Origin: an uncultured Oligoflexia bacterium
GTDB lineage: Bacteria; Bdellovibrionota; UBA1018; UBA6935
Reading direction: 5' to 3'
DNA: 64,000 bases
Assembly (NCBI GenBank): GCA_964013565.1
Contig: CAXGWU010000001.1
Coordinates: 93,601 to 157,600, forward strand
Each line of letters opens with the position of its first letter. The first letter of the stretch is position 1. The position numbers and the translations under genes are program-made. The notes under the pieces were generated by a model. It ran no database searches and had not been told where the DNA came from. It was given only the letters and a program-made list of their open reading frames with translations. This document shows, piece after piece, positions 8,231-58,487 of the stretch.

Positions 8231-8310
8231 GGACGATCTTTACTTTAAGGATACGCGGTGCGCTAATCAATCAGAATTCCTTGATTTTATAAGAATCAAA
8301 AAGGAAAAGT

Positions 8311-9795: not shown

Positions 9796-9797
9796 TT

Positions 9798-16880: not shown

Positions 16881-16930
16881 CGTTTATTTAGTCCTTTTTT
16901 AAAAGTAAGATTTGCTTTTTTTAAAATGAT

Positions 16931-18463: not shown

Positions 18464-18464
18464 T

Positions 18465-27230: not shown

Positions 27231-27854
27231 GTGGAGATTGGTGCATCTATGTTGAGCATCCTTGGTAAGCTAACAAAATCCCAAATTCGTTTGGGTCTGT
27301 TTTTTGGTACATTGGTAGGACTTGCGATTGTGGTCGGAATTGTCTCGTTATTTCCGTCTGCGTCTGATCAGGGCTATTACCCTGAGCAACCTATTCCCTT
27401 TAGTCATAAGTTACATGCAGGAACAAATAAGATTGACTGTAAGTACTGTCACGTGGGTGTGACTCGTTCTCATCATGCAAGTATTCCTCCGATGAATGTT
27501 TGTATGAACTGTCATCGAGTTGTGAAGACGGATAGTCCTCATATTCAGAAACTTGCGCGGGCTTATCGAGATGGGAAACCAATTGAGTGGGTTCGAATCC
27601 ATCGTCTGCCCGATCATGTTTTTTTCAATCATAGACCTCATATCTCTGCTGGAGTTTCCTGTGAAACTTGTCATGGAGATATTAAGGAAATGGACCGAAT
27701 CTATCAATCAAAACCATTGACGATGGGGTGGTGTTTGAATTGTCACAGGGGTGAAACAACTCCTGAACAGGTCCTTGAAAATCTGGGTAAAAAGCGTGGA
27801 AAAGATGGTCGAGCGGATGTAGCTCCTGTGAACTGTTCCACTTGTCATTATTAA
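27231..27854 (+). CDS. actA: alternative complex III subunit ActA (pentaheme cytochrome c)
   Basis: N-terminal TM helix and five CxxCH motifs (CKYCH, CMNCH, CETCH, CLNCH, CSTCH). First gene of the act operon. Alternative ATG start at 27249. Confidence 0.88.
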   Translation: MEIGASMLSILGKLTKSQIRLGLFFGTLVGLAIVVGIVSLFPSASDQGYYPEQPIPFSHKLHAGTNKIDCKYCHVGVTRSHHASIPPMNVCMNCHRVVKTDSPHIQKLARAYRDGKPIEWVRIHRLPDHVFFNHRPHISAGVSCETCHGDIKEMDRIYQSKPLTMGWCLNCHRGETTPEQVLENLGKKRGKDGRADVAPVNCSTCHY

Positions 27855-27887
27855 AAACAACAAAGACGCGATTAGAGAGGCAAATTC

Positions 27888-30800: not shown

Positions 30801-31016
30801 TTGCGAGACGGAGAATTAAAAACCGCTTGTCAACAGACTTGCCCGACAGACGCAATTACTTTTGGAAATACCAATGATGCAAACTCAATGGTTTCTCAAC
30901 AGAAAAAAGAGAAGCATGTTTTTCATTCTCTTGAAATTTTAAATAACTTACCGCAAGTGTCTTACCTTACTAAAGTAAGAAACAAAGAAGAAGGGGCTCA
31001 TCATGGAAAGCACTGA
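27888..31016 (+). CDS. actB: alternative complex III subunit ActB (fused molybdopterin-like and FeS domains)
   Basis: Tat motif [11 protein letters not shown]. MopB-like N-part. Ferredoxin cysteine clusters [38 protein letters not shown] and CTFCVQR. Confidence 0.92.
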
Positions 31017-32376
31017 GAGATTTCATCAGGACGTTCTTGTCACCGGTGGAAAACAGTACTCGGATTTAAATGACGATGTTGCAAAACCGTTGGAGAGTTT
31101 TCCTACGAAAAAATGGTGGGTCTGTTTTATTACAGCGGTACTTGTTTTTGCTTTTGGGGCGATGCTTGCAGCAAATATGTTTATGCAAGGACTAGGTGTT
31201 CTTGGATTAAACCAGCCTACCGGCTGGGGAACATTTATCGTAAACTTTGTTTTTTGGGTCGGTATTGGACATGCAGGAACATTGATTTCAGCAATTCTTT
31301 TTCTTTTTAGACAAAAGTGGAGAACGGCAATTAATCGTTCGGCTGAGGCAATGACAATCTTTGCGGTGATGACTGCATTGTTATTCCCTTTGATTCATAC
31401 GGGGCGACCGTGGTACGCGGCGTTTTGGTTATTGCCCTATCCCAATCAAAGAGAGTTGTGGGTGAATTTTAGGTCACCACTTTTATGGGACGTTTTTGCG
31501 GTATCCACCTATTTTACTATTTCAGCTATTTTTTGGTATGTGGGTTTGATTCCAGACTTGGCTTCCATTCGAGATCGAGCAAAGCATCCAATTCGAAAAT
31601 TAATTTATACTCTTTTGTCGATGGGATGGACGGGCTCCAATAAAAATTGGAGGCATTATGAAGTGGCTTATTTGTTATTTGCTGGACTTTCTACACCGTT
31701 GGTTCTTTCTGTGCATTCAGTCGTTTCGTTTGACTTTGCGGTTTCAAATCTTCCTGGTTGGCATACGACGATTTTTCCTCCCTACTTCGTAGCCGGAGCT
31801 ATTTTTTCTGGCTTTGCGATGGTGGTGACTTTGTTGACAATTGTTCGAGAAGTCTTTGAATTGAAAAACTATATTACTATTGACCATCTGGAGAAGATGA
31901 ACAAAATCATCATGGCGACAGGGATGTTGGTCGGTTACGCATATGCCTGTGAATTTTTCATTGCCTGGTACAGTGGTGCGGAATTTGAAAGATTTGCGTT
32001 TATTAATAGAGCTTTTGGCCCTTACTGGTGGGCTTATTGGACGATGGCGATTTGTAACGTGATTATTCCTCAGATTTTTTGGTGGAGACCTGCACGAAGA
32101 AATATTGCAATTATGTTTGTGATCTCCTTGTTTGTGAATATTGGGATGTGGTTTGAACGGTACGTCATTACCGTCACTTCACTTCATCGTGATTTTATTC
32201 CTGGAAATTGGAATATGTATATTCCAACTTGGTATGACTGGGGAATCACCCTTGGAAGTTTTGGTTGGTTCTTTATTTTCTTCTTACTTTTTTGTCGATT
32301 ATTACCAGCGTTGGCAATGTCTGAAATTAAAGGCGTGATGCCAAGTCCAAAGGGAGGAGCCGCTCATGTCGAGTAA
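31003..32376 (+). CDS. actC: alternative complex III subunit ActC (NrfD/PsrC-like quinol-interacting membrane subunit)
   Basis: About 10 TM helices with NrfD-like sequence ([22 protein letters not shown]). Operon position. Confidence 0.9.
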
Positions 32377-32929
32377 TGCTCAAATATTAGAGGGAGTTGT
32401 TGGATTTTTTGATGATCCTGAAACAACTCTAGAGGCGATGAAAAAAGTGACGGAGGCAAATTATGAATCTTATGATTCTTATACTCCGTATCCAATTCAT
32501 GGAATGGACGATGCGATGGGACTGAAAAGGTCTCCTCTTCCTTGGATTACTTTAGCGGCGGGTATTGCTGGAGTGTCCTTGGCTTTTGCGCTTCAGTATT
32601 GGACTTCTGTCGTTGATTGGCCTGTGAATGTAGGAGGAAAGCCTTTTAATTCTTGGCCGGCATTTGTTCCAGTGATGTTTGAGTTAACGATTTTGTTTTC
32701 TGGGATTTTTACGTTACTTGGACTTTTAGGGCTGTGTCGACTTCCAAATACTGGAAGGAAAGTCATTGATCCTTCGATTACTCGAGATCGATTTGCAATT
32801 ATGATCGATTTACCTAAAAAAGTAAGAAATTCTTCTTGTAAGCCATTTGAGGAGAGTGAAGTCACTCAATTCTTACAGTCTTTGGGAGCCAAGGATGTCC
32901 GAAAAGTTTATGAAGAAGGGTGGTTCTAA
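32366..32929 (+). CDS. actD: alternative complex III subunit ActD (DUF3341)
   Basis: [29 protein letters not shown] followed by two TM helices. Operon position. Confidence 0.85.
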
Positions 32930-33499
32930 GTGAAGGTTTTTTTCAAGAAATCACTTTTAGTGGCAGTCATGTTAGGAGGGTTGACCTCTTGTCGGCACGA
33001 TAAACCGAATATGACCTACATGCCAGATATGCATTACAGTCCTGCAGTCAAAGCTCAAGAGCAGACTCGGTGGAATTCAAAAACCCGGGTTCCTGTAGAA
33101 GGAACAATACCGAGAGGATATCATCCTTATCGGTACTCTGGTCAGCCAGAAAAAGCAGGTCAAATGTTAAAGAACCCACTTCGAAGGACAAAGACGGTCC
33201 TCAATCATGGGCGGGATTTATTTAATACCTACTGTATTGTCTGTCATGGGAAGTTTGGAGAGGGAGATGGTTACATTATTCCTAAGTATCCACGTCCACC
33301 AAGTTTACAGTCAGATAAAATTAGAAACTACCCTGATGGGAGAATTTATCACATCATTACAGAGGGTCAGAATTTAATGCCAAGTTATGCTTCTCAAATT
33401 TTACAAGAAGATCGATGGGCAATTATTCATTATATCCGAGTGCTACAACGAGCAAAAAAGCCAACCGCTTCGGATTTAAAGAAATTGGAGAATTGGTAA
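32930..33499 (+). CDS. actE: alternative complex III subunit ActE (monoheme cytochrome c lipoprotein)
   Basis: GTG start, lipobox LTSC, single CIVCH motif and an MP axial ligand region. Confidence 0.85.
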   Translation: MKVFFKKSLLVAVMLGGLTSCRHDKPNMTYMPDMHYSPAVKAQEQTRWNSKTRVPVEGTIPRGYHPYRYSGQPEKAGQMLKNPLRRTKTVLNHGRDLFNTYCIVCHGKFGEGDGYIIPKYPRPPSLQSDKIRNYPDGRIYHIITEGQNLMPSYASQILQEDRWAIIHYIRVLQRAKKPTASDLKKLENW

Positions 33500-33500
33500 G

Positions 33501-34709
33501 ATGAGTGCACATTCACACGTTGAAAAAGAGTTAGTGAATCCTGGAAGTTTTCATGCATCGGGACGGCTCAAAGGAGTTTTATTTTTGTGTGCCTTAGTTG
33601 GCTTAGCGGCAACTGCGGGAGCTTTTTTTACAGATACACACAGAGCCTGGCCAAGTTTTTTAATAAATCACTTTTATTTTCTTTGTTTAGGTTTAGGTGG
33701 GCTCTTCTTTGCAGCGATCCAGTGGTTGACAGGAGCGATGTGGAGTGCACCAGTGCGTAGAGTCAGTGAGTCTTTTACAGCTTATCTGCCTGTAGCCGTC
33801 TTAACGACAGTTGTTATTTTTATTGGAATGCACGACCTGTTTCATTGGACGCATCCTGAGGTGGTAAAAGGAGATATTGTTTTAGAAGGGAAAGCTCCTT
33901 ATCTCAATGAAGCTTTTTTTATCGTAAGAAACTGTGTCTTTCTTTTGGCCTGGTTGTTTTTTTCTCATAAAATGATTGGGAATAGTTTAGCTCAAGATCA
34001 AGATCCCGGGAATTATCGATTTAATTTAAAAAATAGAGTGTTAGCGCCTATTTTTCTTGTGGTATTTGGTTTTGGTTTCACTTTTACTTCGTTTGATCAG
34101 CTCATGTCTCTTGACCCTCATTGGTTTAGTACAATGTTTGGAGTTTATGCTTTTGCGGGGCTTTTTTATTCAAATCTTGCGATCACTTGTCTTTTAACTA
34201 TTTATTTGAGAAGAAAAGGACATCTTAAAGAATTTGTAAATGAAAACCATTTACATGACCTAGGGAAATTTATGTTCGCTTTTACAGTATTTTGGGCTTA
34301 CATCGGATTTTCTCAGTTTATGTTGATATGGTACGCAAACCTTCCTGAAGAAACAGGATACTTTTTAAGAAGAATGGATGATGCGTGGATGGGGTTCTCC
34401 CTGGTTTTGTTCTTCGGAAAATTTATTCTTCCATTCTTTTGGTTGCTTCCACGAGCAGCGAAGCGATCAGAATCAAGATTGATGATCGCTGGAATTTTTA
34501 TGTTGATTGCTCAGTGGGTTGATTTGGCTTGGCTTGTTCAGCCTGAGTTTTTTAAAGATGGCCCTCATATTGGATGGATTGAGATTGGTATGTTTGTTGG
34601 ATTCGCAGGTGTTTTTGGGCTGACTGTTTTACGGTTCTTGTCTAAAAATAACGTGGTAGCGATTGGTGATCCACGGTTACAGGAATCCGTTTTTCATCAT
34701 CATCAATAA
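33501..34709 (+). CDS. actF: alternative complex III subunit ActF (membrane subunit)
   Basis: Polytopic membrane protein following actE. Last gene before a strong terminator. Confidence 0.85.
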   Translation: MSAHSHVEKELVNPGSFHASGRLKGVLFLCALVGLAATAGAFFTDTHRAWPSFLINHFYFLCLGLGGLFFAAIQWLTGAMWSAPVRRVSESFTAYLPVAVLTTVVIFIGMHDLFHWTHPEVVKGDIVLEGKAPYLNEAFFIVRNCVFLLAWLFFSHKMIGNSLAQDQDPGNYRFNLKNRVLAPIFLVVFGFGFTFTSFDQLMSLDPHWFSTMFGVYAFAGLFYSNLAITCLLTIYLRRKGHLKEFVNENHLHDLGKFMFAFTVFWAYIGFSQFMLIWYANLPEETGYFLRRMDDAWMGFSLVLFFGKFILPFFWLLPRAAKRSESRLMIAGIFMLIAQWVDLAWLVQPEFFKDGPHIGWIEIGMFVGFAGVFGLTVLRFLSKNNVVAIGDPRLQESVFHHHQ

Positions 34710-44741: not shown

Positions 44742-44756
44742 AAACTAGAAAAAATT

Positions 44757-44870
44757 AAAGAGGAGATTGATTACTTTTCATCTTCGGGTGAACAGTGTTC
44801 TTCAAAGCTTTTCATCATGATTTGTTCGGATGGGGATGAAGAGTAATCAATCTCCTCTTCTTTTTTCTTT
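44757..44870. terminator. long inverted repeat (about 25-bp arms, 52-nt loop) with flanking T/A runs; probable bidirectional terminator
   Basis: Arm 44758-44782 (aagaggagattgattacttttcatc) pairs with 44835-44859 (gatgaagagtaatcaatctcctctt), with a single T-G wobble position. T-run at 44861-44866. Lies between convergent genes. Confidence 0.6.
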
Positions 44871-45750
44871 AGAATAATTTTTTTATTTTTAACCATTCTC
44901 TAATCGCTTGATCTTTAGATCCTCGATTAAACATTTCTACTTGATGATCTTCCCCTCCATAACGAAAAGTGAGAACGTCTAAAGATGGATCGTTCTTTAA
45001 CGCTTTTGCTACTCCATCGCAGTGATGTCTATGGTCATCTATAAAGAGGATAGATTTAAGCTTTTTTTTCGCATGATTTAAAAAAAGCTTAAGCATTGCT
45101 CCTTTATGTTGTCCTTCTGAAAAAAAAATACCTTCTCGATAAAGAACTTTTCGTGGAGAGGTAAGTAGATGAAAATTTTTAATTTCTTTTAAAGAAAATC
45201 CTTCTTTTTGAAGAGTTGAATATTGATACGGTAAAAAAGTATTTTTTGGAAAAGATGAAGGTATTGCGTTTTGACTTAAGTCCACTTGAATTGAAGTCAG
45301 ATGCCTCATGGTGTACGGGTAAAAACGAGGCCCCCGACTGGTTAAAATGAGAATAGGGTATCCTTGATTTTGAAGGGAGCGGATGAGAGTCGATGTGTTT
45401 TTCTGAGTAGGTCGAGCTGCGGCGAGCGCATGCAGTTTCCCTTGTACTTCTAATAGCCCCATAAAAGACTGAGCGACAGCAAAAGGAAAGTGAGGCTGAT
45501 TTAGATGTTCATATTGCCAACGAAACCATTGATCACTTCCAATCGATTGTTGATAAGCAAGTAGAGTATTGTCGAGATCAAAAACGACAAGAGTTTGAAA
45601 AATACTGTGAGTGTTTGACTGTATTTTGGAATATTTGACGACTTCTTCGAGATGGTTGATTTCATAGTGATGAGATGAAGCATATGAGAGTTGAAAAATA
45701 ATCTGAAAAAATAAGATCAAGACAAATTCTCTTTCATTTGTGGCTCCCAT
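44869..45750 (-). CDS. HAD-superfamily phosphatase-like protein, probably exported
   Basis: VVFDLDNTLL (DxDxT motif I), LTSRG (motif II-like), FIDDHRHH (motif IV-like). Hydrophobic N-terminus. Confidence 0.55.
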   Translation of the reverse strand: MGATNEREFVLILFFQIIFQLSYASSHHYEINHLEEVVKYSKIQSNTHSIFQTLVVFDLDNTLLAYQQSIGSDQWFRWQYEHLNQPHFPFAVAQSFMGLLEVQGKLHALAAARPTQKNTSTLIRSLQNQGYPILILTSRGPRFYPYTMRHLTSIQVDLSQNAIPSSFPKNTFLPYQYSTLQKEGFSLKEIKNFHLLTSPRKVLYREGIFFSEGQHKGAMLKLFLNHAKKKLKSILFIDDHRHHCDGVAKALKNDPSLDVLTFRYGGEDHQVEMFNRGSKDQAIREWLKIKKLF

Positions 45751-46895
45751 TTTTTTTGTACTACTTTAGCTAATACGAATGCCAAAAGGAGAACCCCAGA
45801 AGCTGCTATAAAGGGAGTTCCTGCACCTAGATGATCAAAAAGGTATCCACTCATGGGAGGTCCTACAATTCTGGCTAGGCTTGACGATGAATGAAAAATT
45901 CCCATAGTGACCCCTCTTCTGGAAGGGGCTGCGCCTTGAGAGCAAAGACTTGAGAGGGTTGGGTGTAAAATTCCATGTCCGAATGCCATAAGAATCATTG
46001 CATAAATAAGGTGAGTATAATCAAATGTTTGACCAAACCAACTCATTCCGGCTGACATTAAAACAGTACCGATTAAGACTAATCGAATATCTCCAAATAA
46101 TTTTGAGAGTTTTCCAATCAGTCCTCCTTGAATAAAAGCCATGATCAGTCCCATGGTACCGAGCAGGTATCCTGCTTGTAGAGCTGTTTTAGAAAAACGA
46201 GTCTTTAAGTAAAGAGCAAATGACACTTCCATTTGAACAACCGCTAAGGTGAGAAGAAAAAATAAGAAAGTTGTACTTCCAGTGAGAGGATGGCTTAAAA
46301 CTTCTTTTAAGGTTGTTCGGTTGAATTTACGATCCCGATTTGCTTTTCTTTGCTCGTGAGTGAGGGGAGGCTCTTTTAAAATAAATATTGCTAAGATCAA
46401 GTTTAAAGCAGAGAGTCCAGCCGCAAAGAATAAAGGAGTGGAGTATCCATGTTGGGACAGAATCCCTCCAATGGCGGGTCCAAAGATAAATCCCAATCCA
46501 AACCCGGCACCAATCAGTCCCATTCCTTTTGAGCGGTTCTCTTGAGTAGTTACATCTGCTACGTAAGCATAGGCTGTGGAAATATTTGCCGTCATGATTC
46601 CTGCACAGAATCGAGCAATAAATAGCCAAACGAGAGAAGATGCAAATCCTAGACCGGTAAGACTAAGGACCGTTCCAAAAATACTGATTAAGAGAACTTT
46701 TCTTCTTCCGATTCTGTCGGAGAGTTGCCCCCAAAGGGGAGCAAAAAGAAATTGCATAAGTGAGTAAATAGTCATTAACCAACCGAGGTCCCAGGCGGTA
46801 GCTCCAAAGCTCTCCGCATAATAAGGGAGAATTGGGATGACGATTCCAAAACCGAGAAGGTCAATAAATAGGACCAAAAAAAGAGTAAGTAACAT
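45717..46895 (-). CDS. MFS transporter (drug:H+ antiporter-like)
   Basis: 12 TM helices with the MFS motif A, GQLSDRIGRRKVLL. Confidence 0.85.
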   Translation of the reverse strand: MLLTLFLVLFIDLLGFGIVIPILPYYAESFGATAWDLGWLMTIYSLMQFLFAPLWGQLSDRIGRRKVLLISIFGTVLSLTGLGFASSLVWLFIARFCAGIMTANISTAYAYVADVTTQENRSKGMGLIGAGFGLGFIFGPAIGGILSQHGYSTPLFFAAGLSALNLILAIFILKEPPLTHEQRKANRDRKFNRTTLKEVLSHPLTGSTTFLFFLLTLAVVQMEVSFALYLKTRFSKTALQAGYLLGTMGLIMAFIQGGLIGKLSKLFGDIRLVLIGTVLMSAGMSWFGQTFDYTHLIYAMILMAFGHGILHPTLSSLCSQGAAPSRRGVTMGIFHSSSSLARIVGPPMSGYLFDHLGAGTPFIAASGVLLLAFVLAKVVQKKWEPQMKENLS

Positions 46896-46906
46896 GGGAA
46901 TAAGGT

Positions 46907-47614
46907 TTATCTTGATTCAGGGGGGCCATGCAAGAACGCAATGAGTGATGCGAAAAAGAATCCAAAAAAACCGCCAAAAACTACATCAGTCGGATAATGT
47001 CGCCCCGCCCAGACTCGAAGAACTCCTGTTGAAATGGTGAGAAAGAGGCTGAGAAAGAAGATCATTTTTTGCGCTCTTGAGTTTAGATTCCGCCTTACAC
47101 CAAAATAAATGAGGGAAACACAGGAAGCCGCAGCAAAACTCGTATGTCCTGAGAAAAAGGAACTATAATCGTGAACGTTATTTGCTTGATGCCACGGTTT
47201 AAGAAATAAGTAAGGGCGAGGACGGTTGGTTACGATTTTTGTGATCTCTGTAAACATTCCTGTGATGAGAACAGATTGAGCAAAAATAGTGAAATCAAAT
47301 AAAAAGTCTTTTGAGGTACTCTTTTCAAAAGGAGGAAGTTTTTGGATTTTTCGGTAGAGGTGAATACTTAAAGGAATAAATACAGCACAAAGACCAGCAA
47401 GATCTTGAGTCCAAAATGATGCAATATCAGCGAGATCATGAATGGGATGAATTGCAAGTTGATCAATGAAATTAATTTCTGAAGCTGAGCATGCTCCTTC
47501 TTTTGCGCAGGGAGTGTTCATCCATTGATCTCTATTTTTGACTAGAAAAATCCAGAGCAAACCTGGAATCAGAATAAGCCATGCATCTACTTTAAAAAAT
47601 AAGCTTCGTTTCAT
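46907..47614 (-). CDS. PAP2-family (acid / lipid phosphate) phosphatase, membrane
   Basis: The three PAP2 motifs: KIVTNRPRPY, SFFSGHTS and VWAGRHYPTDV. Confidence 0.85.
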   Translation of the reverse strand: MKRSLFFKVDAWLILIPGLLWIFLVKNRDQWMNTPCAKEGACSASEINFIDQLAIHPIHDLADIASFWTQDLAGLCAVFIPLSIHLYRKIQKLPPFEKSTSKDFLFDFTIFAQSVLITGMFTEITKIVTNRPRPYLFLKPWHQANNVHDYSSFFSGHTSFAAASCVSLIYFGVRRNLNSRAQKMIFFLSLFLTISTGVLRVWAGRHYPTDVVFGGFFGFFFASLIAFLHGPPESR

Positions 47615-47659
47615 TTTAAGTCACTTTAACATAATTCGTTTTTGACTGGTAAATTTCAT

Positions 47660-48553
47660 TTATTCAAGCGCCCAATCAAAAATTCCATGGATTCTTAATC
47701 TTCTGACTTCTTCTTTGAGTCGATCTACTTCAATTTGAAGGTCTTCGATTCTGTTGATGAACGTTGAAGCCGTAAAAAACAGGGTTTCAACGTCAATGCT
47801 TATTTGAAGAAGTGCTTTTGAGTGATTTTGCAATAACACTCGATAGTAAATTCGGGCATTTTTGAGTTCATCAATACGGTAGTTATCAATACTTAAGGCG
47901 AGATCAAAAAGTTCTTTTTCAGTAGATTCAATAATGTCGAGTTGAGTGCTTTCTAAGAGTTCAAATGGGTTGAGATAGTTTCTTCTTAAATGTTCAATGA
48001 TGAATGCGTCAATTCCCCCAATGATTCCACCTGTAAGATAGACTTGAGTTCTACCAATGAGGGTTTTTGGAAGCTCATGAGAGACAACCTTCAGTCGTCG
48101 AGAGAATTGCTCTAGGTTTGTCTTTCCTGCAGAAACCCAAGCAGATTTTTTAAATAAACCACGAGTCCATTTAAATCCATAAAACAAAGTCCAGTATACA
48201 GCAATATCTTTAAAGATAATCATGACGGGATGACGTTTCTCTTGTTCATCCAGTTCTCTTTGAATCATTGATTGTATTTGAGAGAGAAGTAAAACGGTAT
48301 TTGCTCGGTCAATCGGATTCCAGCGATAATGACTTATTAAATTAAGAAGCGTTTCATTAAAATCTTCTTTTGAAAGAGATTTAATTCTTCTGGAGAGAGC
48401 ACGGGCATGTCTGAGTTGTAGATCTTCACTCGAGGGAGAGTCGTTTTCATTTGATGAATAAGTATTAAAATAATCTTGAATCATTTGATCTGACCAAGGA
48501 GCTGCATAAGAAAATCCATGAAATAAAAAAATTCCTAATAAAAATTGAATCAT
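47660..48553 (-). CDS. hypothetical secreted/membrane protein (third gene of a coupled trio)
   Basis: Start at MIQFLLGIFLFHGFSYA gives an ATGA overlap with the upstream stop. Hydrophobic segments VMIIFKDIAVYWTLFYGF and YLTGGIIGGIDAFII. Confidence 0.5.
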   Translation of the reverse strand: MIQFLLGIFLFHGFSYAAPWSDQMIQDYFNTYSSNENDSPSSEDLQLRHARALSRRIKSLSKEDFNETLLNLISHYRWNPIDRANTVLLLSQIQSMIQRELDEQEKRHPVMIIFKDIAVYWTLFYGFKWTRGLFKKSAWVSAGKTNLEQFSRRLKVVSHELPKTLIGRTQVYLTGGIIGGIDAFIIEHLRRNYLNPFELLESTQLDIIESTEKELFDLALSIDNYRIDELKNARIYYRVLLQNHSKALLQISIDVETLFFTASTFINRIEDLQIEVDRLKEEVRRLRIHGIFDWALE

Positions 48554-50019
48554 GGGGTCTCTTCTTTCCATTCATAAGTCATTTGAAGAAATTGATTAAG
48601 CATTTGATTGATTGAATGCATGTCTTGAGTCAAACGAGTAATGAGAGTTTGTTTACCTGGGAATGTATATTGGTGAAGATTTGCTATAGCATGAAGAAAA
48701 ACCGAGTTGGGATGGGAGAAGCTAGTTTGAGGTAATAAGCTATTTAAATAGCGTAGATTCATTTTTTCTACCCACTTCGAATAAAGATCTTCTTTTAGAG
48801 AAAGAAGCATGGATGATTGAATTTGTTCTTCTTGATGGGGTTTTATTTTTTGAAGGTAAAAATCTCTATAGAACCATGCAAGTTCCTTTAGGTGAGGTTC
48901 AAATGCGGCTAAAGAATACCAGTCTTTGTGAATGATGCGTTCTCGAGTTAAAAATCCAGAGTAGCCAAAATGTGAGAGCATTTTATGTTTATTAAATACA
49001 TGAAGGAGTTCTAGGAAAAGCTCATTTGATTCCTTTTTTGAAAGTTCAGTGGGGTTTTCAAATGCCTCACTGGTGAGCTCTATGGTTTCTTCATAAACAG
49101 GTTGAAATAAAAAATAAGCAAGTTTTTGAGCGTCTTTGGCGATTCTGTGTCCATAAATGGCTCTTTGATGTGGGGTAGTTGCTAATTTAAATTCATCAAT
49201 TGAACTAAGGTAATCTTTAGTGTGATTTGATTTTTTATGTTTTTGATAACGGGCATATGCTTGTTCTTCTACGAGTACGCCTGCAACAATGCTTCCAGCA
49301 AAAACAAGTGGATGAGCTTTTGCTGGTGTTGCAGCTCGATTGACTCCTCCGAACAGAAGAGCACCTCGTTGAATCATTTTTCCTATGAGTGCTTCTGCTA
49401 AGAAGCTACCGCTAACAAAACTTCCTAGTTTAAAAAATAAGTCTGTCGTTACAGGGCCATTAAGAAGAGGAAAGGGATCAGAGGGAAGAGCTTCTAATTG
49501 AATGAGATGAGAAGGGGGGGCTTTCTCTGTTGCAGATCGAGAAAGAAATTCTCCAGTAGATTTTCCAGCAACAAAGCCAACAACTGGGAGTGTGCCTCTT
49601 AAAAATTTAAAATAAGAACTTATTTTTTCTGGGTGTTTTTTTAGAATGAAGTAAAAAGCAAGGGCAAGTCCTATTCCACTTACAGTTCCAATTCCCGCTC
49701 CCGCATCGATTGTTAAATTTCGAATTCTTTGAGAGCCTTTGGCACAATGACTTTCCCAGTGTGTTTGTAGATCGATAGCAATGGATGGAAGTTTATTGGG
49801 ATCTATTTTTTCACTTAAAATGAGTAACGCATTTGAGTAGTTTTCATTGTCTAGTGAGAATACTTTTTGAATAAGTAAATCAGAAGAAATTAAGTTTTCT
49901 GTGGTTGTTTGAGCTGAGTTTACTCTAGTTATGATTTCTTCAAGTGAGTTATTAAGTGCTTTAGTTTTACAAATTCCGAAAGCGAGTTGTGGAATAAAAA
50001 AAAGAAAAAATAATTTCAT
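48550..50019 (-). CDS. hypothetical secreted/membrane protein with Gly-rich hydrophobic segments
   Basis: Start at MKLFFLFFIPQLAFG (ATGA overlap with the upstream stop). Segments AGAGIGTVSGIGLALAFYFIL, LPVVGFVAGKSTG and LVFAGSIVAGVLV. Confidence 0.5.
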   Translation of the reverse strand: MKLFFLFFIPQLAFGICKTKALNNSLEEIITRVNSAQTTTENLISSDLLIQKVFSLDNENYSNALLILSEKIDPNKLPSIAIDLQTHWESHCAKGSQRIRNLTIDAGAGIGTVSGIGLALAFYFILKKHPEKISSYFKFLRGTLPVVGFVAGKSTGEFLSRSATEKAPPSHLIQLEALPSDPFPLLNGPVTTDLFFKLGSFVSGSFLAEALIGKMIQRGALLFGGVNRAATPAKAHPLVFAGSIVAGVLVEEQAYARYQKHKKSNHTKDYLSSIDEFKLATTPHQRAIYGHRIAKDAQKLAYFLFQPVYEETIELTSEAFENPTELSKKESNELFLELLHVFNKHKMLSHFGYSGFLTRERIIHKDWYSLAAFEPHLKELAWFYRDFYLQKIKPHQEEQIQSSMLLSLKEDLYSKWVEKMNLRYLNSLLPQTSFSHPNSVFLHAIANLHQYTFPGKQTLITRLTQDMHSINQMLNQFLQMTYEWKEETP

Positions 50020-52649
50020 AAACTGGCCTCCAGAGTTTTTAGAGTGCCCGGTTGTTTTAAGATCCATCTTTCATTTAAAAGAGTTTTTTCACTGAGTCTA
50101 AAATAGGCCTTTTCAATAGATTTAAGTTCTTCTTGAGTTAGGTTCTGAGGTTTTTTTCTGAGGTGATCAAGTTGTTTTTTTAATTGTTCTAAATTCCAGC
50201 TTTTAGAATTTCCTGGTTTTATTTTTAAAGTTTTAAAAGCTTCAATATCTTTAATGATTTCTTTGAATCTTAACGCCGATCCAGATTCAAATTCAATAAA
50301 ATGAGCAATGGGTTTGTATCGAGATACTTTGATCCACTGTAAAAGTCTGCTAGCCCAAGATAAGCCAAAAAGTAATCCAATATCTACGATTAAAAATTTT
50401 ATTTTTTGGCTTTGGTATATTTTCTTTGCTGAATCGAGATTAATAAAGCTTATAAAGGCATCTTTTTTAACTTGAGAACGATATATTTTTTTGATCTTAT
50501 TTTTCTTTATTCGTGTGTCATAAAAAGTGTTTTTTGCTTGATAAGCGATTTCTCCAATGAGCATCCAAGCAATTACTTTTTTTAAACGTTCTGTAAATGG
50601 CATTTTTAAAATCAGTTTAGAGAAAGGACCTAGTTTTTTTGAAAAGAAACTCACACTTTCAAGGATGATGAGTCCTGTTGCTAAGTTGATCATTTCATCG
50701 GAAAGAGTTTCTCCTGCAATTTGATCTAAAAGGGTTTGTTCTTGAAGTCTTTTTTTCTCGTTTTGAATGATCTTGTTATAGTTTGGGTAATTTTCAATAA
50801 ATGATTCTGTGATTTGGGATTCTAAAAAAATGATTTTTAAATCATCTATTTTTTTTGCAGATTGAACTCGATTGATGAGTTGAAATAGGTTTTTTTTAGC
50901 GATTTCAATCGATGCTTCAATCGGAGCCCAAGGGGTATAGGCTGCGAGGTTTTCAGATAAATATTTTCCTTCAGAAGTGTTTGTGTTTAGAAGTGGATGT
51001 CTGAGTCGAGTATTTTCTCTTTTTTCTTCATAGTCTTCTGTAGAGAGGTTTTTAAAAAAATCGAGAGAAGGGCTTTGTTCTGGATGAAACGGTCTAAGAA
51101 ATCCCATCCATTTTCCGAAATGGTAAAGACTATAAAGGTCTCTTCTTATTTCTGATTTAATTTCATGAATCATTCGATGTGTTTTTAAAGACTCTTTTTG
51201 GGACTTTATTTTAGCAGGAAGTGAAATTTTTCCGTTCTCTAAAAAATGAATAAATCTGACTTTGTCAATTTTCCCTTCGTAAAAACACCATGGAGGAAGA
51301 AATAGTTCTAGAGATGACTGGTAGTTGTTGAAGGACTCAGAATAAGAGTTTGATTGAACGATTTTCTGAAAAATTTGTTTTGCAAATAGTGATGGGTTGT
51401 CTTTTAGAAAAAAAGGAAGATAGTGTTTTCCCAGAAGAAGGGGTTGGATAAAGGTTTGTCTTGCAAATGATTTTTTTATTTGGATTAATTCAGATTTAAA
51501 TTCTTCTCTTTTTATTTGTGTGTTGTCACTTTTTAAAGTTTTATTTGATTCATTAATCCAATTTTCAATTTGATCAGAAGGAATTTTTTTTAAAAAATTG
51601 TTACTGATTTCATGTATTTTTTCAGTAAGAGATTCTTCGATAGATTGATCTAAATCAAACGCGATGTGGGTAAATGATAGTCTTAAGGTTTCTTCTAATG
51701 CGAGGGCAATCCACCTTTTTAGTAATGGGATCCACGTTTCTTGCGGGCTTTTAGAAAATAAAAACGATGTATTGAAGATTTGAGTTTTTGTAGCTTTTAT
51801 TGCCACATCTTGGATGTATTTTATTTTTTCTTTTTTAAAGAGATTATTTACTCTTTTGTCTTGTGCAATGCGAATAAGGTCTGCTCTGTCTTCTTCATCT
51901 AAAAAAAGAGGTAAATTAAGTGTGTCAATGCTCTTTGACAGTGCATTACGTGTTTCGTTTTCTTTATTTGATTCGTTTATTTGTGTAAAATAAGCTAATC
52001 CATTTTGTTGTGGTGAAACGTTTATAGATTTTAAAGTGTCTTGAATGTCTCTTTTGTTTTTTTCAGAAACAATTTCATTCATAACAAATAGTTGCTCTAT
52101 TGCCTGTTCTATAACTTTTTGTTTAAAAATTTTGAAGAAGTTTTTTTTATTTGGATTTTGTTTGAGTTTATAATTTTTTGCTTCTTGAGAAAAGTCACTA
52201 AGGAGTTTAAGTCGATATTTGTTGTCTTCTTTTTGAATTTTTATTGGAAAGGGCCGGTCTTGGTTTGCTTGAAATTTTAACCAGGCAAACAAGCGTTCTT
52301 CAGAAAGAGGGATGCTCCAATCAATACTGGAAGGGGAGGAGTGGAGCTGAGAGGTGATCAAGAAGATTTCAATGATTTCTAGATATTTTTGTAACGGATC
52401 AGATTCATCGCTCAGTGGATCTTTAATGATTTGAGTTTTCCATTGGAGCAATTCCGATTCAATTTCTACAAGGGAATGAGAGGGAGTCATTGAAGTCCAG
52501 CGATCAGGGTGAATTACTTGCTTCATTTGAAGCACAATTTGTCGATGAAGCTCATTTGGAACTAATGCTGCCATTGAATTCAAAGGAAAAACAAAGAGTT
52601 TTGCCAGAATCACAATTGTGAAGCGTGTACCCCAAGGAAGTCTTTTCAT
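50016..52649 (-). CDS. large hypothetical Lys/Asn/Ile-rich protein with C-terminal TM segments
   Basis: The ORF is open to 52736. The more likely start is MKRLPWGTRFTIVILAKLFVFPLNSMA at 52649. C-terminal hydrophobic segments LATGLIILESVSFF, VIAWMLIGEIAY and FLIVDIGLLFGLSWA. Confidence 0.5.
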   Translation of the reverse strand: MKRLPWGTRFTIVILAKLFVFPLNSMAALVPNELHRQIVLQMKQVIHPDRWTSMTPSHSLVEIESELLQWKTQIIKDPLSDESDPLQKYLEIIEIFLITSQLHSSPSSIDWSIPLSEERLFAWLKFQANQDRPFPIKIQKEDNKYRLKLLSDFSQEAKNYKLKQNPNKKNFFKIFKQKVIEQAIEQLFVMNEIVSEKNKRDIQDTLKSINVSPQQNGLAYFTQINESNKENETRNALSKSIDTLNLPLFLDEEDRADLIRIAQDKRVNNLFKKEKIKYIQDVAIKATKTQIFNTSFLFSKSPQETWIPLLKRWIALALEETLRLSFTHIAFDLDQSIEESLTEKIHEISNNFLKKIPSDQIENWINESNKTLKSDNTQIKREEFKSELIQIKKSFARQTFIQPLLLGKHYLPFFLKDNPSLFAKQIFQKIVQSNSYSESFNNYQSSLELFLPPWCFYEGKIDKVRFIHFLENGKISLPAKIKSQKESLKTHRMIHEIKSEIRRDLYSLYHFGKWMGFLRPFHPEQSPSLDFFKNLSTEDYEEKRENTRLRHPLLNTNTSEGKYLSENLAAYTPWAPIEASIEIAKKNLFQLINRVQSAKKIDDLKIIFLESQITESFIENYPNYNKIIQNEKKRLQEQTLLDQIAGETLSDEMINLATGLIILESVSFFSKKLGPFSKLILKMPFTERLKKVIAWMLIGEIAYQAKNTFYDTRIKKNKIKKIYRSQVKKDAFISFINLDSAKKIYQSQKIKFLIVDIGLLFGLSWASRLLQWIKVSRYKPIAHFIEFESGSALRFKEIIKDIEAFKTLKIKPGNSKSWNLEQLKKQLDHLRKKPQNLTQEELKSIEKAYFRLSEKTLLNERWILKQPGTLKTLEASL

Positions 52650-52861
52650 GGAGTTTTTATAACGCAATAAGTCATTGTTTTCAATGAAGAAGGTTCGTAG
52701 GGCCTTTGATTCAAATTTCAGGTTCGACCCATGCATTTATTTGAAATTACTATTAAAATTGTAACGATTTAGTCTGGAACTTCGAATAAGTTCTATTACA
52801 GGCGAAAAATAGTACTTCTAAAAAGGAAAGTTTGTTTCGATTGACTCGATTATCAATCTTT

Positions 52862-54757: not shown

Positions 54758-55010
54758 AAACGAGCCCCTTTAGCGTTTTGTTTGTGATTTCAATAGTTAA
54801 CCTATCAAAGCTTTAAGAAAAGCAAAAGGAGTGGGGGTGTTTTGAGGTATTTATTATAAAAAACAATAAGTTATATGAATACTGTTGAAAAATAACCTTA
54901 AAAGTCAGATATTAAGGTTAAGGATCACTTCTATTACTCCGATAGGAAGTTAAGGTTTTATGGGCTTTTTGGTGTCCATGAATCTAAAAGTAAAAAAAAG
55001 GTTTAAGATC

Positions 55011-58000
55011 ATGAAAATACAACATTTCATTTTACCGCTCTCAGTGGTCTTTTTTGGGTTGATGGGAATAAGTCAGGCTTCTGGTGGACCTGCAACCCAA
55101 GAGGAAAAAGAAGCTCTTGTTTTTTTCAAGAACAATGGCCTGGAGTTAACTCTAAAAGAACTACGAGAAAATGAAAAAGATGCACAAAAAATAGCAGATA
55201 TGTGCACGAGCATTAAGGAAGACTATCAGCAGATTCCAGAAAGAGTAAAACAACGCTGTATTCATAGTGGGTCTGCAGGAACTTATATGCGGAATAAGTA
55301 CATTGTTAAATACACTCAAAGATTATTTAAAAAAGCAAACTGTGAAGGTGCAGATACCAAAGAATCGGTGATCGACTGTTATCAAAACATCCAAAATAAA
55401 TTGATTGATAAAAAAAATAAGTCAAAAAAGTCAGGGATTACCGGATATGGAAGACATTTCTCTAAGGTAAGACCGACTTTTAAAGAAGTTGCAGTGGATA
55501 AGTACTGCCATTCGATTGCACGAAAAAGAAGTGAAAACGGGGCTGCATTGCCTCCAACGTTTGTTACGGATTGTGTCGCTCTTGAGTATGGGCATTTAGC
55601 GGTCCTCGTAGAGGGACTTGATGTTAGAGATGATGAAAGTCTTTCTGGGACAAATATGATGCAAAAAAATGTTTCTCGTTTTGTGAGTCATTTACAAAAT
55701 CCAAAAGCATTTGAAGAAATCTTTAAAAAAGCCAGAGAGAAAGCAATTCGCCTTTCTAAAACTCCAGGGCAAAGTTTTCAAAAAGCTAATCTTGAATATC
55801 GAAGATTGGCTCGAATAGGTGCAGTCTTAAAGGAACTTGATGCCGTATGTAAAGGACTCAAAGGACAAAAGGCAAGAGCATGCGTACGTGAACAGCTGGG
55901 AGATATGAAGTATGAGCTCAGTCGTGGAGTGATGGAAAATGGTCTTGGTAATGAATTAGATTACGCAACCGCATGGGATTGGGCGAGAAGAGATTGTGTC
56001 GCTGCTTTGATTCAGCTCGATGGAAGTGAAGTTTCAGATACTAAAATAAGACAAAAAGAACTGAGAGATCAGTGTACTTCTCCTAAAGTGATTCAAGACA
56101 GGCTTTGGGAAGTTCCGAGCTTAGCTTTTGTTCCTCTAAAAAAAGGAGGAGGAGCAGGAGGTTCTGATGAGGACGGTGAGGGCTCAGGAGGAAGTGGCTC
56201 AGATGGGGAAAAGGGCGGAAGTTTTGGTGGCGTTGCTGGCGGTGGAAATGCAGACGCAGCTTCTTCCTCTGGTAATGTCGTTTTAGCTGATGATAAAGAT
56301 CATTGGAGTATTACCAATGATATTGCTTCTTTAAGAAATTTAATCAGTGAAAAAGTTTTTGACTCTAGTTCAGTTTGCCAAAGAGTCGCTTCAAAAGATG
56401 CAAACTTAAAGTATAAGAAAGAAGCAGCGTCCAGTCTTGGTGTTCCTGATGATGGCGTTTGTGTCGAATGTAAAAAAAGTGGAACGGGATTTTTAGGTAC
56501 CACTGTAGGTGACTTAGCTGAACACCTTGCTCATGAAAAAGCCGATGTGACTGTGGGTGAATATGACCGAATGCTTCGAAGGAAGTTTTTAAAAGTACTT
56601 TCCGATTCCTATAAAGAAGATTTTTTAGAAGATCTTCCTATTGAGAAAGAGGGAGCTTTTCCTGCTTCGAGGAAGAAAACATTTGGATCCTTGGGGCTTG
56701 ATGGATCGATGTGTGAAATTAATCCAAGTCTTTTAGATGCGATGGGTTTTGAGAAAGACGAAAAAGGGAACATTCAACCTGTGGTTCCTTTCCGAAAAAA
56801 CCAACTTGAAAAAGAGGATAGAATCGATCCTAAAAGAATTCGTTCATGCGCAAAAAGAATTTCTGATGCAAGAAATGCAGTGAGGACACGACTGTTTGGA
56901 AAAGACCCAGACGCTCTTCTTGACATGGTTTCTCAAGAAGATAAAGAGTTTGTGATTCAAAAAACAAAGCTTTATGAAGAAGTTGCGCAAGAGTGTCCAG
57001 AAGTCAAATGGGGTGCTCCTGGTGCTTCTCAGTTTCTTGGAAACCCTGGAAGCGAAGAAAAAGCGATGAAGTGGTATGACATCGAATTTAAAGGTTGGGG
57101 ATTTACTAAAGATAAAATTTCAAGAGATGGTCTTCCTTTTGTTACTCAATTTGGAGATTCATCTCTGAGTGATGCAGAGATTTCTTCTCGATTAACAAAA
57201 ATTAGAAAAGAAAGAAAAGATGCATATTTGAAACTGATCCATTCCACATGTGATCCTGATTTAAAACAAGCTGGGAAAATCACTTCTTATTTAAATAATA
57301 TGGCAGCTTTAGTTTCCGTGGATGATCCTGGTCATTTAAAAGATGAAAGAAGAGTGGGTGCGGACGGAAAAATTACCGCTTATGGAAAAATGAGAGATGC
57401 TCACGAGTGTGTCAATTTGACCAATAATGCAGATTTTAAACATGACGCATTTCAGACGTTTACGATGGTGGCGTGTACACTTGGAGAAGTGGCAGTGGGA
57501 GCATCAGGTGTGGGATTACCGATCACTGTTGGAATAGGTGCTGCGTGTTTTGGTGGAGAAGCATTAGAGCTTCTTGATCATATGAACCACAAATCTCAGA
57601 AAGCATCCTTTTTGTCGGCATGTGAACTCCTAAATGCGGGAAGAAAAGGAGTATGTGACTATGATTCTGCTCAAAAGGCAGCCCAAGAAGTTGAAGCGAT
57701 TTACGATGAATTAGTTCTAAGTGCTGCAATGAATGGAGTTGGGGTTTTGGGTGGAGACGTCCTAGGAAAAGGGTATGCGAAGGCAAAGCAGCTGAAGGGG
57801 GCTGCTCGTCGAATTAAGGATTGGAATACCTTATCTAAAGTGACTGGAGAGCTTGCTACCGCAAAGGGGCTTCAAAAGAAAATGAGCCGCTTGAAAAGGA
57901 TTGAAGATCAAATCGTGTCTCATCGAGGGCGGATCAGTCGACGAAAAATGAAAGCTCTTGAAAATGAAGCAGCTCGATTGAATAAGGAAATTTCAAGAGA

Positions 58001-58487
58001 TCTTGATGATGTGACCAATGCGATGATTGCTCAGATTAAGGTTAACGATCCAGCTCTTTATAAAGAAATGATTGCGGATGCGGCAGTTAAAAATAAAACG
58101 AATAAAATTGAACTTTTTGAAGATCTTTCTAGAAGAATGGATCAGAATGAAGCTTTTGCTAATAAAATGAGAGCTCAAGCAAAAGAGGCTCGAGAACGCT
58201 TGGCGGATACTCATCCAAATGTGCGGATGTACGACCCGGATCGGCAGCCTGCTGAGATTTTAGCGATTCAATCTAGAGTTGATGAAATCAAAAGTGGTTT
58301 AAAAGCAGATGAGAATCGACATTATTTTGAATTAGTCGAAGCTCATAAAAAGAAGCATGGAAGGAAACCAAGATTGCTTCAGCGAAGAAAGTATAAAAAA
58401 CAGGCTCGAGAACGCGCTGAGCTTGATATGAAACGAAAAGACGTTGACTTGGACAAACGTATCGTGAGTTGTCACGGAAAACGCTAA
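55011..58487 (+). CDS. very large hypothetical secreted protein (Cys-rich N-part, G/S/D linker, Gly-zipper-like hydrophobic hairpin, basic coiled-coil tail)
   Basis: Signal peptide MKIQHFILPLSVVFFGLMGISQA. Linker GGGAGGSDEDGEGSGGSGSDGEKGGSFGGVAGGG. Hydrophobic segment ACTLGEVAVGASGVGLPITVGIGAACFGGEA. K/R/E-rich C-terminus. Confidence 0.55.
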   Translation: MKIQHFILPLSVVFFGLMGISQASGGPATQEEKEALVFFKNNGLELTLKELRENEKDAQKIADMCTSIKEDYQQIPERVKQRCIHSGSAGTYMRNKYIVKYTQRLFKKANCEGADTKESVIDCYQNIQNKLIDKKNKSKKSGITGYGRHFSKVRPTFKEVAVDKYCHSIARKRSENGAALPPTFVTDCVALEYGHLAVLVEGLDVRDDESLSGTNMMQKNVSRFVSHLQNPKAFEEIFKKAREKAIRLSKTPGQSFQKANLEYRRLARIGAVLKELDAVCKGLKGQKARACVREQLGDMKYELSRGVMENGLGNELDYATAWDWARRDCVAALIQLDGSEVSDTKIRQKELRDQCTSPKVIQDRLWEVPSLAFVPLKKGGGAGGSDEDGEGSGGSGSDGEKGGSFGGVAGGGNADAASSSGNVVLADDKDHWSITNDIASLRNLISEKVFDSSSVCQRVASKDANLKYKKEAASSLGVPDDGVCVECKKSGTGFLGTTVGDLAEHLAHEKADVTVGEYDRMLRRKFLKVLSDSYKEDFLEDLPIEKEGAFPASRKKTFGSLGLDGSMCEINPSLLDAMGFEKDEKGNIQPVVPFRKNQLEKEDRIDPKRIRSCAKRISDARNAVRTRLFGKDPDALLDMVSQEDKEFVIQKTKLYEEVAQECPEVKWGAPGASQFLGNPGSEEKAMKWYDIEFKGWGFTKDKISRDGLPFVTQFGDSSLSDAEISSRLTKIRKERKDAYLKLIHSTCDPDLKQAGKITSYLNNMAALVSVDDPGHLKDERRVGADGKITAYGKMRDAHECVNLTNNADFKHDAFQTFTMVACTLGEVAVGASGVGLPITVGIGAACFGGEALELLDHMNHKSQKASFLSACELLNAGRKGVCDYDSAQKAAQEVEAIYDELVLSAAMNGVGVLGGDVLGKGYAKAKQLKGAARRIKDWNTLSKVTGELATAKGLQKKMSRLKRIEDQIVSHRGRISRRKMKALENEAARLNKEISRDLDDVTNAMIAQIKVNDPALYKEMIADAAVKNKTNKIELFEDLSRRMDQNEAFANKMRAQAKEARERLADTHPNVRMYDPDRQPAEILAIQSRVDEIKSGLKADENRHYFELVEAHKKKHGRKPRLLQRRKYKKQARERAELDMKRKDVDLDKRIVSCHGKR

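Follow-up and report, generated by a model that had tools for sequence, protein, structure and literature searches.

A conserved module of three overlapping genes without known family in an uncultured Oligoflexia bacterium

The gene trio and its recurrence in other lineages

The window analysed here is a stretch of 64,000 nucleotides (nt) from contig CAXGWU010000001.1 of an uncultured Oligoflexia bacterium. Within it, six genes follow one another on the minus strand: three genes of no described family, which we call A, B and C (g1, g2 and g3) and which are the subject of this work, and then a PAP2-type phosphatase, a transporter of the major facilitator superfamily (MFS) and a HAD-superfamily phosphatase. 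Gene A occupies positions 50016..52649 and encodes 877 residues. Its open reading frame (ORF) covers 50016-52736, and an upstream ATG at 52736 would give a product of 906 residues; a full-length alignment (A1) backs the start at 52649. Gene B (48550..50019, in an ORF of 48550-50067) encodes 489 residues from a start at 50019, and gene C (47660..48553, in an ORF of 47660-48571) encodes 297 residues from a start at 48553.

The three genes are joined by two ATGA stop/start overlaps. At the first (50016..50019), the stop codon of g1 (TGA) shares nucleotides with the start codon of g2 (ATG) in the junction ctGGAGGccagtttATGAaa, with GGAGG 7 nt upstream. At the second (48550..48553) the junction reads AAAGAAGAGaccccATGAtt, and the purine-rich AAGAAGAG lies upstream. 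In both cases the Shine-Dalgarno-like sequence is located inside the upstream gene, which bears out the translational coupling proposed in the initial annotation of this DNA. The tight ATGA coupling ends after gene C. The remainder of that first description of the locus was also recovered from the ORF list and the junction reads, namely the six minus-strand genes, the two overlaps, the spacings of 45 nt between g3 and the PAP2 gene and of 11 nt between the PAP2 and MFS genes, an overlap of 34 nt between the MFS gene and the HAD gene (the latter read from the ATG at 45750), and three quoted peptides (AGAGIGTVSGIGLALAFYF in g2, YLTGGIIGGIDAFII in g3 and FLIVDIGLLFGLSWA in g1). Because ORFs of this length are rare by chance at a guanine-plus-cytosine (GC) content of 36%, and because all three have homologs elsewhere, we regard A, B and C as real genes. 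Judged by GC content at third codon positions, they are native to the host genome: their values of 0.23-0.27 fall within about 1.5 standard deviations of the window mean of 0.29 (standard deviation 0.04), and horizontal transfer of the trio is thus unsupported. The low overall GC content of g1 (0.32) is due to its Lys/Asn/Ile-rich composition.

None of the three products has a match in Pfam, NCBIfam, PHROGs, PADLOC or the PDB sequences, in agreement with the original impression that they belong to no described family. Profiles built from alignments A1, A3 and A4 likewise retrieved nothing relevant from all PDB chain sequences at E <= 10. There are no paralogs of the trio within the window, and the three families are not detectably related to one another (hhalign probabilities below 1%). 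The trio thus lies outside known kinds at the sequence level, and a fold-level relationship may still appear. A word-indexed search of 5.8 billion proteins returned only the trio itself, from the same Tara/NCBI metagenome-assembled genome (MAG; GCA_002722705.1), and these self-matches wrongly pointed to orphan proteins. An exhaustive phmmer search with A against 1.8 billion representative proteins found four true relatives, at E-values of 1.7e-8 (P0005), 4.6e-8 (P0006), 1.4e-5 (P0007) and 3.5e-5 (P0008); a fifth match, P0004, is a fragment of g1 itself. P0007, an A-family fragment, comes from a soil metagenome; sample accession 3300047160 is a tropical forest soil co-assembly (PMC10434106). 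A metagenome scan with a three-sequence alignment of A found nothing, and one with an alignment of B found one further locus, L010. Scans of viral contigs with the A and B alignments and a tblastn search of plasmids were empty, and the module is therefore not visibly mobile or phage-borne, as far as these collections reach.

Look-ups of the contigs behind these matches show A, B and C families as direct neighbours in four further metagenomic lineages with GC contents of 0.51-0.69: L007/L008, L009, L006/L011/L012 and, in part, L010. Across the five lineages, the window included, identities are 20-35% and GC contents range from 0.36 to 0.69. Homology is borne out for each family. For g1, the A protein of L007 matches over 934 columns (BLASTP, 3.6e-23). 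The homologs of g2 are B of L007 (6e-21), B of L009 (5e-8), the C-terminal part of a fused ORF in L006 (1e-10) and a region of L010 (tblastn, 3e-7), and those of g3 are the C proteins of L006 (2e-13), L009 (1e-9) and L007 (2e-5).

The arrangement of the genes is conserved along with their sequences. In L009 (GC 0.61), A-like, B-like and C-like proteins of 950, 567 and 309 residues are encoded with overlaps of 4 nt, the A/B junction being the ATGA of GGGAGGccagccATGA and the B/C junction that of GAGGAGcgcccATGA. In L007/L008 (GC 0.69), A has 932 residues and B 538; the A/B overlap in L007 is 8 nt, and C follows after a short gap as an ORF that is cut by the contig end, leaving a fragment of 112 residues. 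In L006 (GC 0.51), a single ORF of 1310 residues is followed by a C ORF of 296 residues with a 4-nt overlap, again an ATGA (AGGGAGaatccATGA). L010 has the order C-B with a 4-nt overlap; gene A is off the contig, and the C-family ORF, which is open at the contig's 5' end, was recognized by hhalign (91.9%, 7e-7). Shine-Dalgarno-like sequences precede the ATGA overlaps in the window, L009 and L006, and wherever the whole trio is visible the order A-B-C and the ATGA overlaps recur.

The 1310-residue protein of L006 (P0006) is an A-B fusion, in which residues 978-1133 align to residues 84-251 of g2 (31% identity, 5e-10). In L012, a contig assembled independently from a second sample, the ORF likewise runs unbroken across the A-B junction, with 1114 of 1117 residues identical, and so the fusion is real and not an assembly artefact. 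The initial annotation had named co-occurrence in other genomes as a check on its grouping of genes. The trio does co-occur, and by this comparative evidence A, B and C form a conserved module of three genes that stands on its own.

Protein anatomy and charge pattern

The product of gene A begins with a Sec-type N-terminus, in which cleavage, placed by eye, falls between MKRLPWGTRFTIVILAKLFVFPLNSMA and AL. A long Lys-rich helical region follows, and then a conserved C-terminal domain. The most conserved part of the protein lies at 50058..50894 (minus strand; residues 586-864), which is the part matched by P0007 and the part in which the invariant columns of alignment A1 cluster. It consists of a weakly hydrophobic helix pair with a basic loop, followed by the motifs D..AF..LG..PG.W and E..AE.AY.RL..K. 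We considered a J-domain for this C-terminus and rejected it: there is no HPD motif, the spacing is wrong, the protein is exported and Pfam gives no DnaJ match.

The product of gene B also has a Sec-type N-terminus (cleavage, again by eye, between MKLFFLFFIPQLAFG and IC). Behind it come an N-terminal domain and then four hydrophobic helices rich in Gly and Ala, and a helical domain of ~230 residues makes up the C-terminal part. The conserved core of B, as defined by alignment A3 and hydropathy, lies at 49267..49770 (minus strand; residues 84-251). In order, it contains an LQ..WE motif, helix 1 (residues 105-127), a basic loop, helix 2, an acidic loop with P.SPAH..LG, helix 3, a second basic loop with N...TP.K..P, and helix 4. 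Conserved charged or polar residues are found inside or beside these helices. The Cys that follows the signal peptide of g2 does not make it a lipoprotein, as it stands in FGIC, which is not a lipobox, and is not conserved.

The product of gene C, the smallest of the three, has a Sec-type N-terminus (cleavage by eye between MIQFLLGIFLFHGFSYA and AP), an FN..L..L...Y motif and a coiled-coil-like C-terminus. Alignment A4 reveals, behind the FN..L..L...Y motif, a weak helix pair separated by a very basic loop of ~40 residues.

N-termini with the n-h-c pattern of signal peptides are present in all module members that are readable at their start; the C ORF of L010 is cut at its 5' end, and the A protein of L007 has such an N-terminus only when an in-frame upstream extension is included. 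Helix pairs are conserved in A, B and C. Their hydrophobic helices, rich in small residues (Gly/Ala/Ser), occupy conserved alignment positions, and it is around them that conservation concentrates. The signal-type N-termini and glycine-rich hydrophobic segments noticed when the locus was first read are thus upheld by the N-termini and alignments of the wider families.

The membrane character ascribed to the trio in the same reading fares less evenly. The hydrophobic segments have a mean Kyte-Doolittle value of about 1.0-1.5, and on a simplified Hessa scale only residues 108-126 of g2, within B helix 1, are clearly like a transmembrane segment (dG 0.9). This one segment is about as hydrophobic as the weaker helices of the neighbouring MFS transporter; the rest of the trio falls below that level. 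The homologous helices have a dG of 3.8 in L007 and 2.4 in L009, and for the B portion of the fusion in L006 no segment is listed (cut-off 5.0).

The helices are flanked by charged loops. Summed over homologs (five sequences for A and five divergent ones for B), the first loop of B carries +17/-2, the second +12/-30 and the third +19/-1, and the stretch after helix 4 carries +9/-15. The hairpin loop of A sums to +22/-8 and that of C to +39/-11. The alternation in B and the basic hairpin loops in A and C fit the positive-inside rule for hairpins inserted from the periplasmic side, in which case the hairpin turns would be cytoplasmic and the two end domains would lie outside. The topology is further constrained by the A-B fusion, which places the C-terminus of A and the exported N-terminal domain of B in one compartment, so that the number of membrane passes in A must be even or zero. 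The basic hairpin loops also somewhat favour the producer's own inner membrane over the targeting of a prey membrane as the place where these proteins would act.

A candidate envelope complex and its alternatives

From the gene structure, coupling, co-conservation, A-B fusion, signal-type N-termini and the positions and charges of the helices, we infer complex formation, membrane topology and a role. We hypothesize that the module encodes a periplasm-facing accessory envelope complex anchored in the inner membrane of the producing cell, a reading that we prefer tentatively and hold at somewhat less than an even chance. In this model the ATGA overlaps and internal Shine-Dalgarno sites would lead to the three proteins being made in coupled amounts, the Sec pathway would export each of them, and A, B and C would assemble into a single heteromeric, all-alpha-helical complex. 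B would be the membrane-embedded core, with two Gly/Ala-rich helical hairpins whose basic connecting loops are kept in the cytoplasm, and A and C would each contribute one weaker hairpin of like design. Roughly 1,400 residues, nearly all of the mass, would face the periplasm, and the complex would act as a channel-like or scaffold unit held together by the packing of small-residue helices.

The three proteins probably form a complex, a judgement that is drawn from the genomes. Several observations weigh against the hypothesis of an anchored envelope complex. Single-sequence AlphaFold2 models of g2 and g3 have predicted local distance difference test (pLDDT) scores of 38.0 and 37.8. The best segment of A is marginal, with a Hessa dG of 4.2, and C has no segment below 5. 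Because only B helix 1 passes classical transmembrane hydrophobicity, most of the segments could instead lie buried inside a soluble helical bundle, or they could be latent, toxin-like insertion helices. The stretch before B helix 1 is itself basic (+19/-8), an exception to the pattern that weakens the positive-inside argument. Rapid divergence of A, B and C would also be expected of effectors. Finally, the sole exhaustive search had one divergent sequence, A, as its query, and the size and taxonomy of the families are thinly sampled.

The best-surviving alternative is that the trio is a secreted, multi-component membrane-attacking complex, whose proteins would leave the cell in soluble form and then make a pore in a target membrane, for example that of prey, by inserting hidden helix pairs. 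We consider this rather unlikely. Such a complex would work like translocon proteins or like the tripartite alpha-helical pore-forming toxins of the ClyA family, for which we considered Hbl and Nhe of B. cereus, AhlABC of Aeromonas, SmhABC of Serratia and MakABE of Vibrio. The B. cereus tripartite toxins are Sec-exported. As in these systems, the trio consists of three proteins per operon, with pairs of Ala/Gly-rich hydrophobic segments, of which B helix 1 alone reaches transmembrane-like hydrophobicity, and the three components occur together, ATGA-coupled here and in L009 and with A and B fused in L006. The trio may also be all-alpha-helical like them, since the low-confidence models of g2 and g3 are helical throughout according to DSSP. 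Tripartite toxins were recognised partly from hydropathy patterns at very low identity, and their hydrophobic heads are Ala/Gly-containing helix pairs that are hidden in the soluble state (PMC6602965). Helix pairs too weakly hydrophobic to be constitutive transmembrane helices, such as those of the trio, would suit this design. The A, B and C proteins also diverge fast relative to neighbouring genes: between L006 and L007 they are 26-31% identical, against 51-58% in adjacent secreted proteins common to both loci. The neighbours of the trio in L006, L007 and L009 are family-less secreted proteins, some of them hydrolase-like, and the host genome carries the NCBI label Bdellovibrionaceae.

However, neither Pfam nor a comparison of profiles with all PDB chain sequences links the trio to ClyA, Hbl, Nhe, Ahl, Mak or Yax proteins, a statement about the sequence level. 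The solved structures of the ClyA family, namely ClyA, YaxAB/XaxAB, NheA, Hbl-B, AhlB and AhlC (PMC6602965), should be among the PDB chains searched. Unlike ClyA-family components, A, B and C are mutually unrelated. Their sizes of 877, 489 and 297 residues are very unequal and straddle that of the 359-residue AhlB chain (PMC6602965), and B has four hydrophobic helices. The hairpin tips are strongly basic, with conserved Pro, Lys and Arg, and would be unfavourable for crossing a bilayer. Moreover, neither outer-membrane secretion machinery nor an immunity gene is conserved beside the trio.

Two further known designs resemble the trio in part. In translocon sets of type III secretion systems, such as IpaB/IpaC/IpaD and YopB/YopD/LcrV, a large protein that contains hydrophobic helices is encoded with two partners, one of them smaller and hydrophobic and the other a hydrophilic coiled-coil protein. 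The trio likewise has a large member, a smaller hydrophobic one and one that is coiled-coil-like, encoded together. However, its proteins have Sec-type signals, which type III substrates lack, and there are no type III secretion genes among the annotated ORFs of the window or of the related loci. Glycine-zipper helices with small-xxx-small patterns occur in the N-terminus of VacA, in some membrane-targeting effectors of type VI secretion systems and in the Pfam Gly-zipper families. The helices of the trio similarly have Gly, Ala or Ser at positions i and i+4, for example in the IGxxVGxxGLG of B helix 1 and the TAGGGAxG of C. In the trio, however, the motif lies within large multi-domain proteins and not in small toxins or lipoproteins, and neither the trio nor its homologs match Gly-zipper_Omp, _OmpA or _YMGG of Pfam at E <= 0.1 or 0.05.

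A bolder idea is that the trio represents a class of machine not yet described, made of three Sec-exported, alpha-helical components that insert into membranes. It would be either a multi-component pore or translocon that predatory or otherwise antagonistic bacteria use on a target membrane, or an inner-membrane channel whose glycine-zipper hairpins come from three different subunits. In sequence, such machines would have no relation to the toxins of the ClyA family or to any other described system. We think it unlikely that the trio is of this kind.

The third possibility, which we regard as decidedly unlikely, is a soluble periplasmic complex that is helical but never inserted into a membrane. 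Its Gly/Ala segments would be packed core helices, and its basic loops would serve either as structural elements or as binding sites for anionic components of the envelope. Such a complex would suit the low hydrophobicity of most segments (Kyte-Doolittle values of about 1.0-1.5, and a Hessa dG above 4 for A and C), the cleavable-looking signal peptides on all three proteins and the conserved charged or polar residues in or beside the helices. However, B helix 1 matches genuine MFS helices in hydrophobicity, and the strict basic-acidic-basic alternation of the loops, kept over four helices and five divergent B sequences, would not be expected of a soluble bundle.

Downstream genes, chromosomal context and implications

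The three genes downstream of the trio are of well-known kinds, and their first identification as PAP2, MFS and HAD genes was correct. The PAP2-type membrane phosphatase (46907..47614, minus strand, 235 residues) belongs to PF01569 (3.4e-21; 75.8 bits against a cut-off of 27.2). All of its catalytic motifs are present, as KIVTNRPRP, FSGHT and RVWAGRHYPTD (KxxxxxxRP, SGH and RxxxxxHxxxD), and its NCBIfam matches are limited to sub-threshold ones to SepP (30.3 against 250 bits), PgpB and LpxF. The MFS transporter (45717..46895, minus strand, 392 residues) belongs to MFS_1 (PF07690, 1.6e-77; 261.2 bits against 33.4); as its best NCBIfam match, Tet(A)/(B)/(C) (NF012174), reaches 218.6 bits against a cut-off of 475, it is assigned to MFS_1 only. 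The HAD-superfamily phosphatase (44869..45750, minus strand, 293 residues) is a DUF2608 protein (PF11019, 1.3e-44; 153 bits against 22.6; HAD-IIIC, 6.9e-6) with a signal-like N-terminus and the DxDxT motif FDLDNT, within VVFDLDNTLL. Its start is ambiguous: an in-frame TTG at 45720 would give a 4-nt TTGA overlap with the MFS gene, resembling the ATGA junctions of the trio. DUF2608 was mentioned in no paper of a full-text literature search. Compared with PgpB, LpxE/LpxF and SepP, with Tet(A)-like transporters of the DHA type and with other DUF2608 proteins, the downstream genes share Pfam membership and intact motifs, but none reaches an NCBIfam equivalog cut-off.

The set is closed by a long inverted repeat, as initially noted, which we located at 44745..44872. 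Its 38-nt arms (44745-44782 and 44835-44872) are 84% complementary and are separated by a 52-nt spacer; the RNA folds at -43.6 kcal/mol (z = -7.6), and the repeat is unique in the window. It takes up all of the gap in which the cox operon and the HAD gene converge. The stop codon of the HAD gene (44869-44871) lies inside the right arm, and the cox-operon gene ends 4 nt before the left arm. The repeat is probably a bidirectional terminator. A scan for promoters and terminators found nothing convincing besides it, and the 45-nt gap between g3 and the PAP2 gene contains no hairpin (z = 0.26). The trio and the downstream genes may therefore share a transcript in this genome.

The initial annotation went further and grouped all six genes into one functional set. 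The conservation of the trio in other lineages does not extend to the downstream genes: tblastn found no homologs of the PAP2, MFS or DUF2608 genes in L006-L010, within up to 10 kb of contig. In L006/L011, L009 and L010 unrelated genes of opposite orientation follow the visible part of the trio; the L007 contig breaks off within gene C, and its downstream side is not readable. Three homologs of the MFS transporter were found in a genome collection without this MAG (L001-L003; Bacteroidota, Ignavibacteria and Phycisphaerales MAGs, 38-44% identity), and neither PAP2 nor DUF2608 lies beside any of them. An envelope- or lipid-modifying, or prey-membrane-targeting, module of six genes would accord with their position on one strand with short gaps or overlaps, with the single strong hairpin that closes the set and with the intact PAP2 motifs and signal-like HAD N-terminus, by which several products would act in the envelope, but it is very improbable given that the six genes do not recur together, that the MFS homologs keep other company and that the tight ATGA coupling does not reach past gene C. 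PAP2, MFS and DUF2608 appear to be ordinary neighbours, whose association with the trio is lineage-specific in the genomes compared and carries no comparative evidence of a functional tie.

The wider surroundings are those of a core chromosome. The acs gene lies directly upstream of g1, and the genes converging on the HAD gene include the cox operon, SCO1, UbiA, a PDZ/S41 protease and an alternative-complex-III-like set. The last of these comprises a 1042-residue protein of the Fe-S/molybdopterin type and a membrane protein of the NrfD type; this set and genes for cytochrome c biogenesis (ResB, CcsA-type) are found at 27231-34709 and 3055-6119. This is a respiratory-chain-rich core region, with the cox operon in the same window. 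Divergent from acs, at 54960-58487 on the plus strand, is a gene for a family-less protein of 1175 residues. Its N-terminus is signal-like and its C-terminus rich in Lys and Arg, and it contains a low-complexity stretch of mainly Gly, Ser and Asp as well as a hydrophobic segment rich in Gly (residues 837-869). The protein is similar to the trio in style and unrelated to A or B by hhalign, and we rejected it as a relative. Farther away, at 8311-19850 on the minus strand, seven tightly packed ORFs form a low-GC block (0.30-0.35 against about 0.39 nearby). The block, which is flanked by a UvrD helicase, consists of two paralogs whose C-terminal domains are of the SLOG/LOG type (9798-11288 and 15189-16880; blastp 3e-27), another pair of paralogs without family (8311-9795 and 16931-18556), a protein like phosphoribosyl pyrophosphate synthetase (18465-19850) and two 650-residue proteins without a Pfam match. 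It looks like a duplicated nucleotide-processing or defence-like module.

In the other lineages, the trio has neighbours of a different sort. Two secreted proteins of ~525 residues without a Pfam match are encoded beside it (L006 514-3890, L012 987-4363 and L007 2601-5842), on the same strand directly upstream in L006 and on the divergent strand in L007. They are 58% and 51% identical between L006 and L007, one of them has the motif GGG(T/V)CFTQACVLSH, and neither has a homolog in the window or in L009. L009 encodes two paralogous secreted proteins of 877 and 439 residues with a common C-terminal domain that contains GHNCTSW and resembles Cys hydrolases. L007 encodes a protein like transglutaminase elicitors (PF16683, 2e-21), and L007 and L009 have in common a secreted protein of 246/267 residues (46-48% identity). 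These genes lie at 4760-8760 and 70-873 of L009 and at 364-2465 of L007. The trio tends to sit among family-less secreted enzymes.

For annotation, the lesson of this locus is that PAP2, MFS and DUF2608 are no guide to the function of the trio. The distribution of the module is so far sparse, and no tie to a long-standing question is evident yet; the practical gain would also be smaller, as most conserved unknowns of such kind prove to be niche accessory systems. The module is known from a Bdellovibrio-like genome of marine origin and from at least one soil metagenome, the source of P0007, and its A-B fusion, fixed gene order and conserved coupling lead to a testable prediction, that A, B and C bind to one another and that B is the membrane core. 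If the trio does form a three-subunit membrane complex, it would define three protein families not described before, together with a conserved module that is new to the Gram-negative envelope or to bacterial antagonism.

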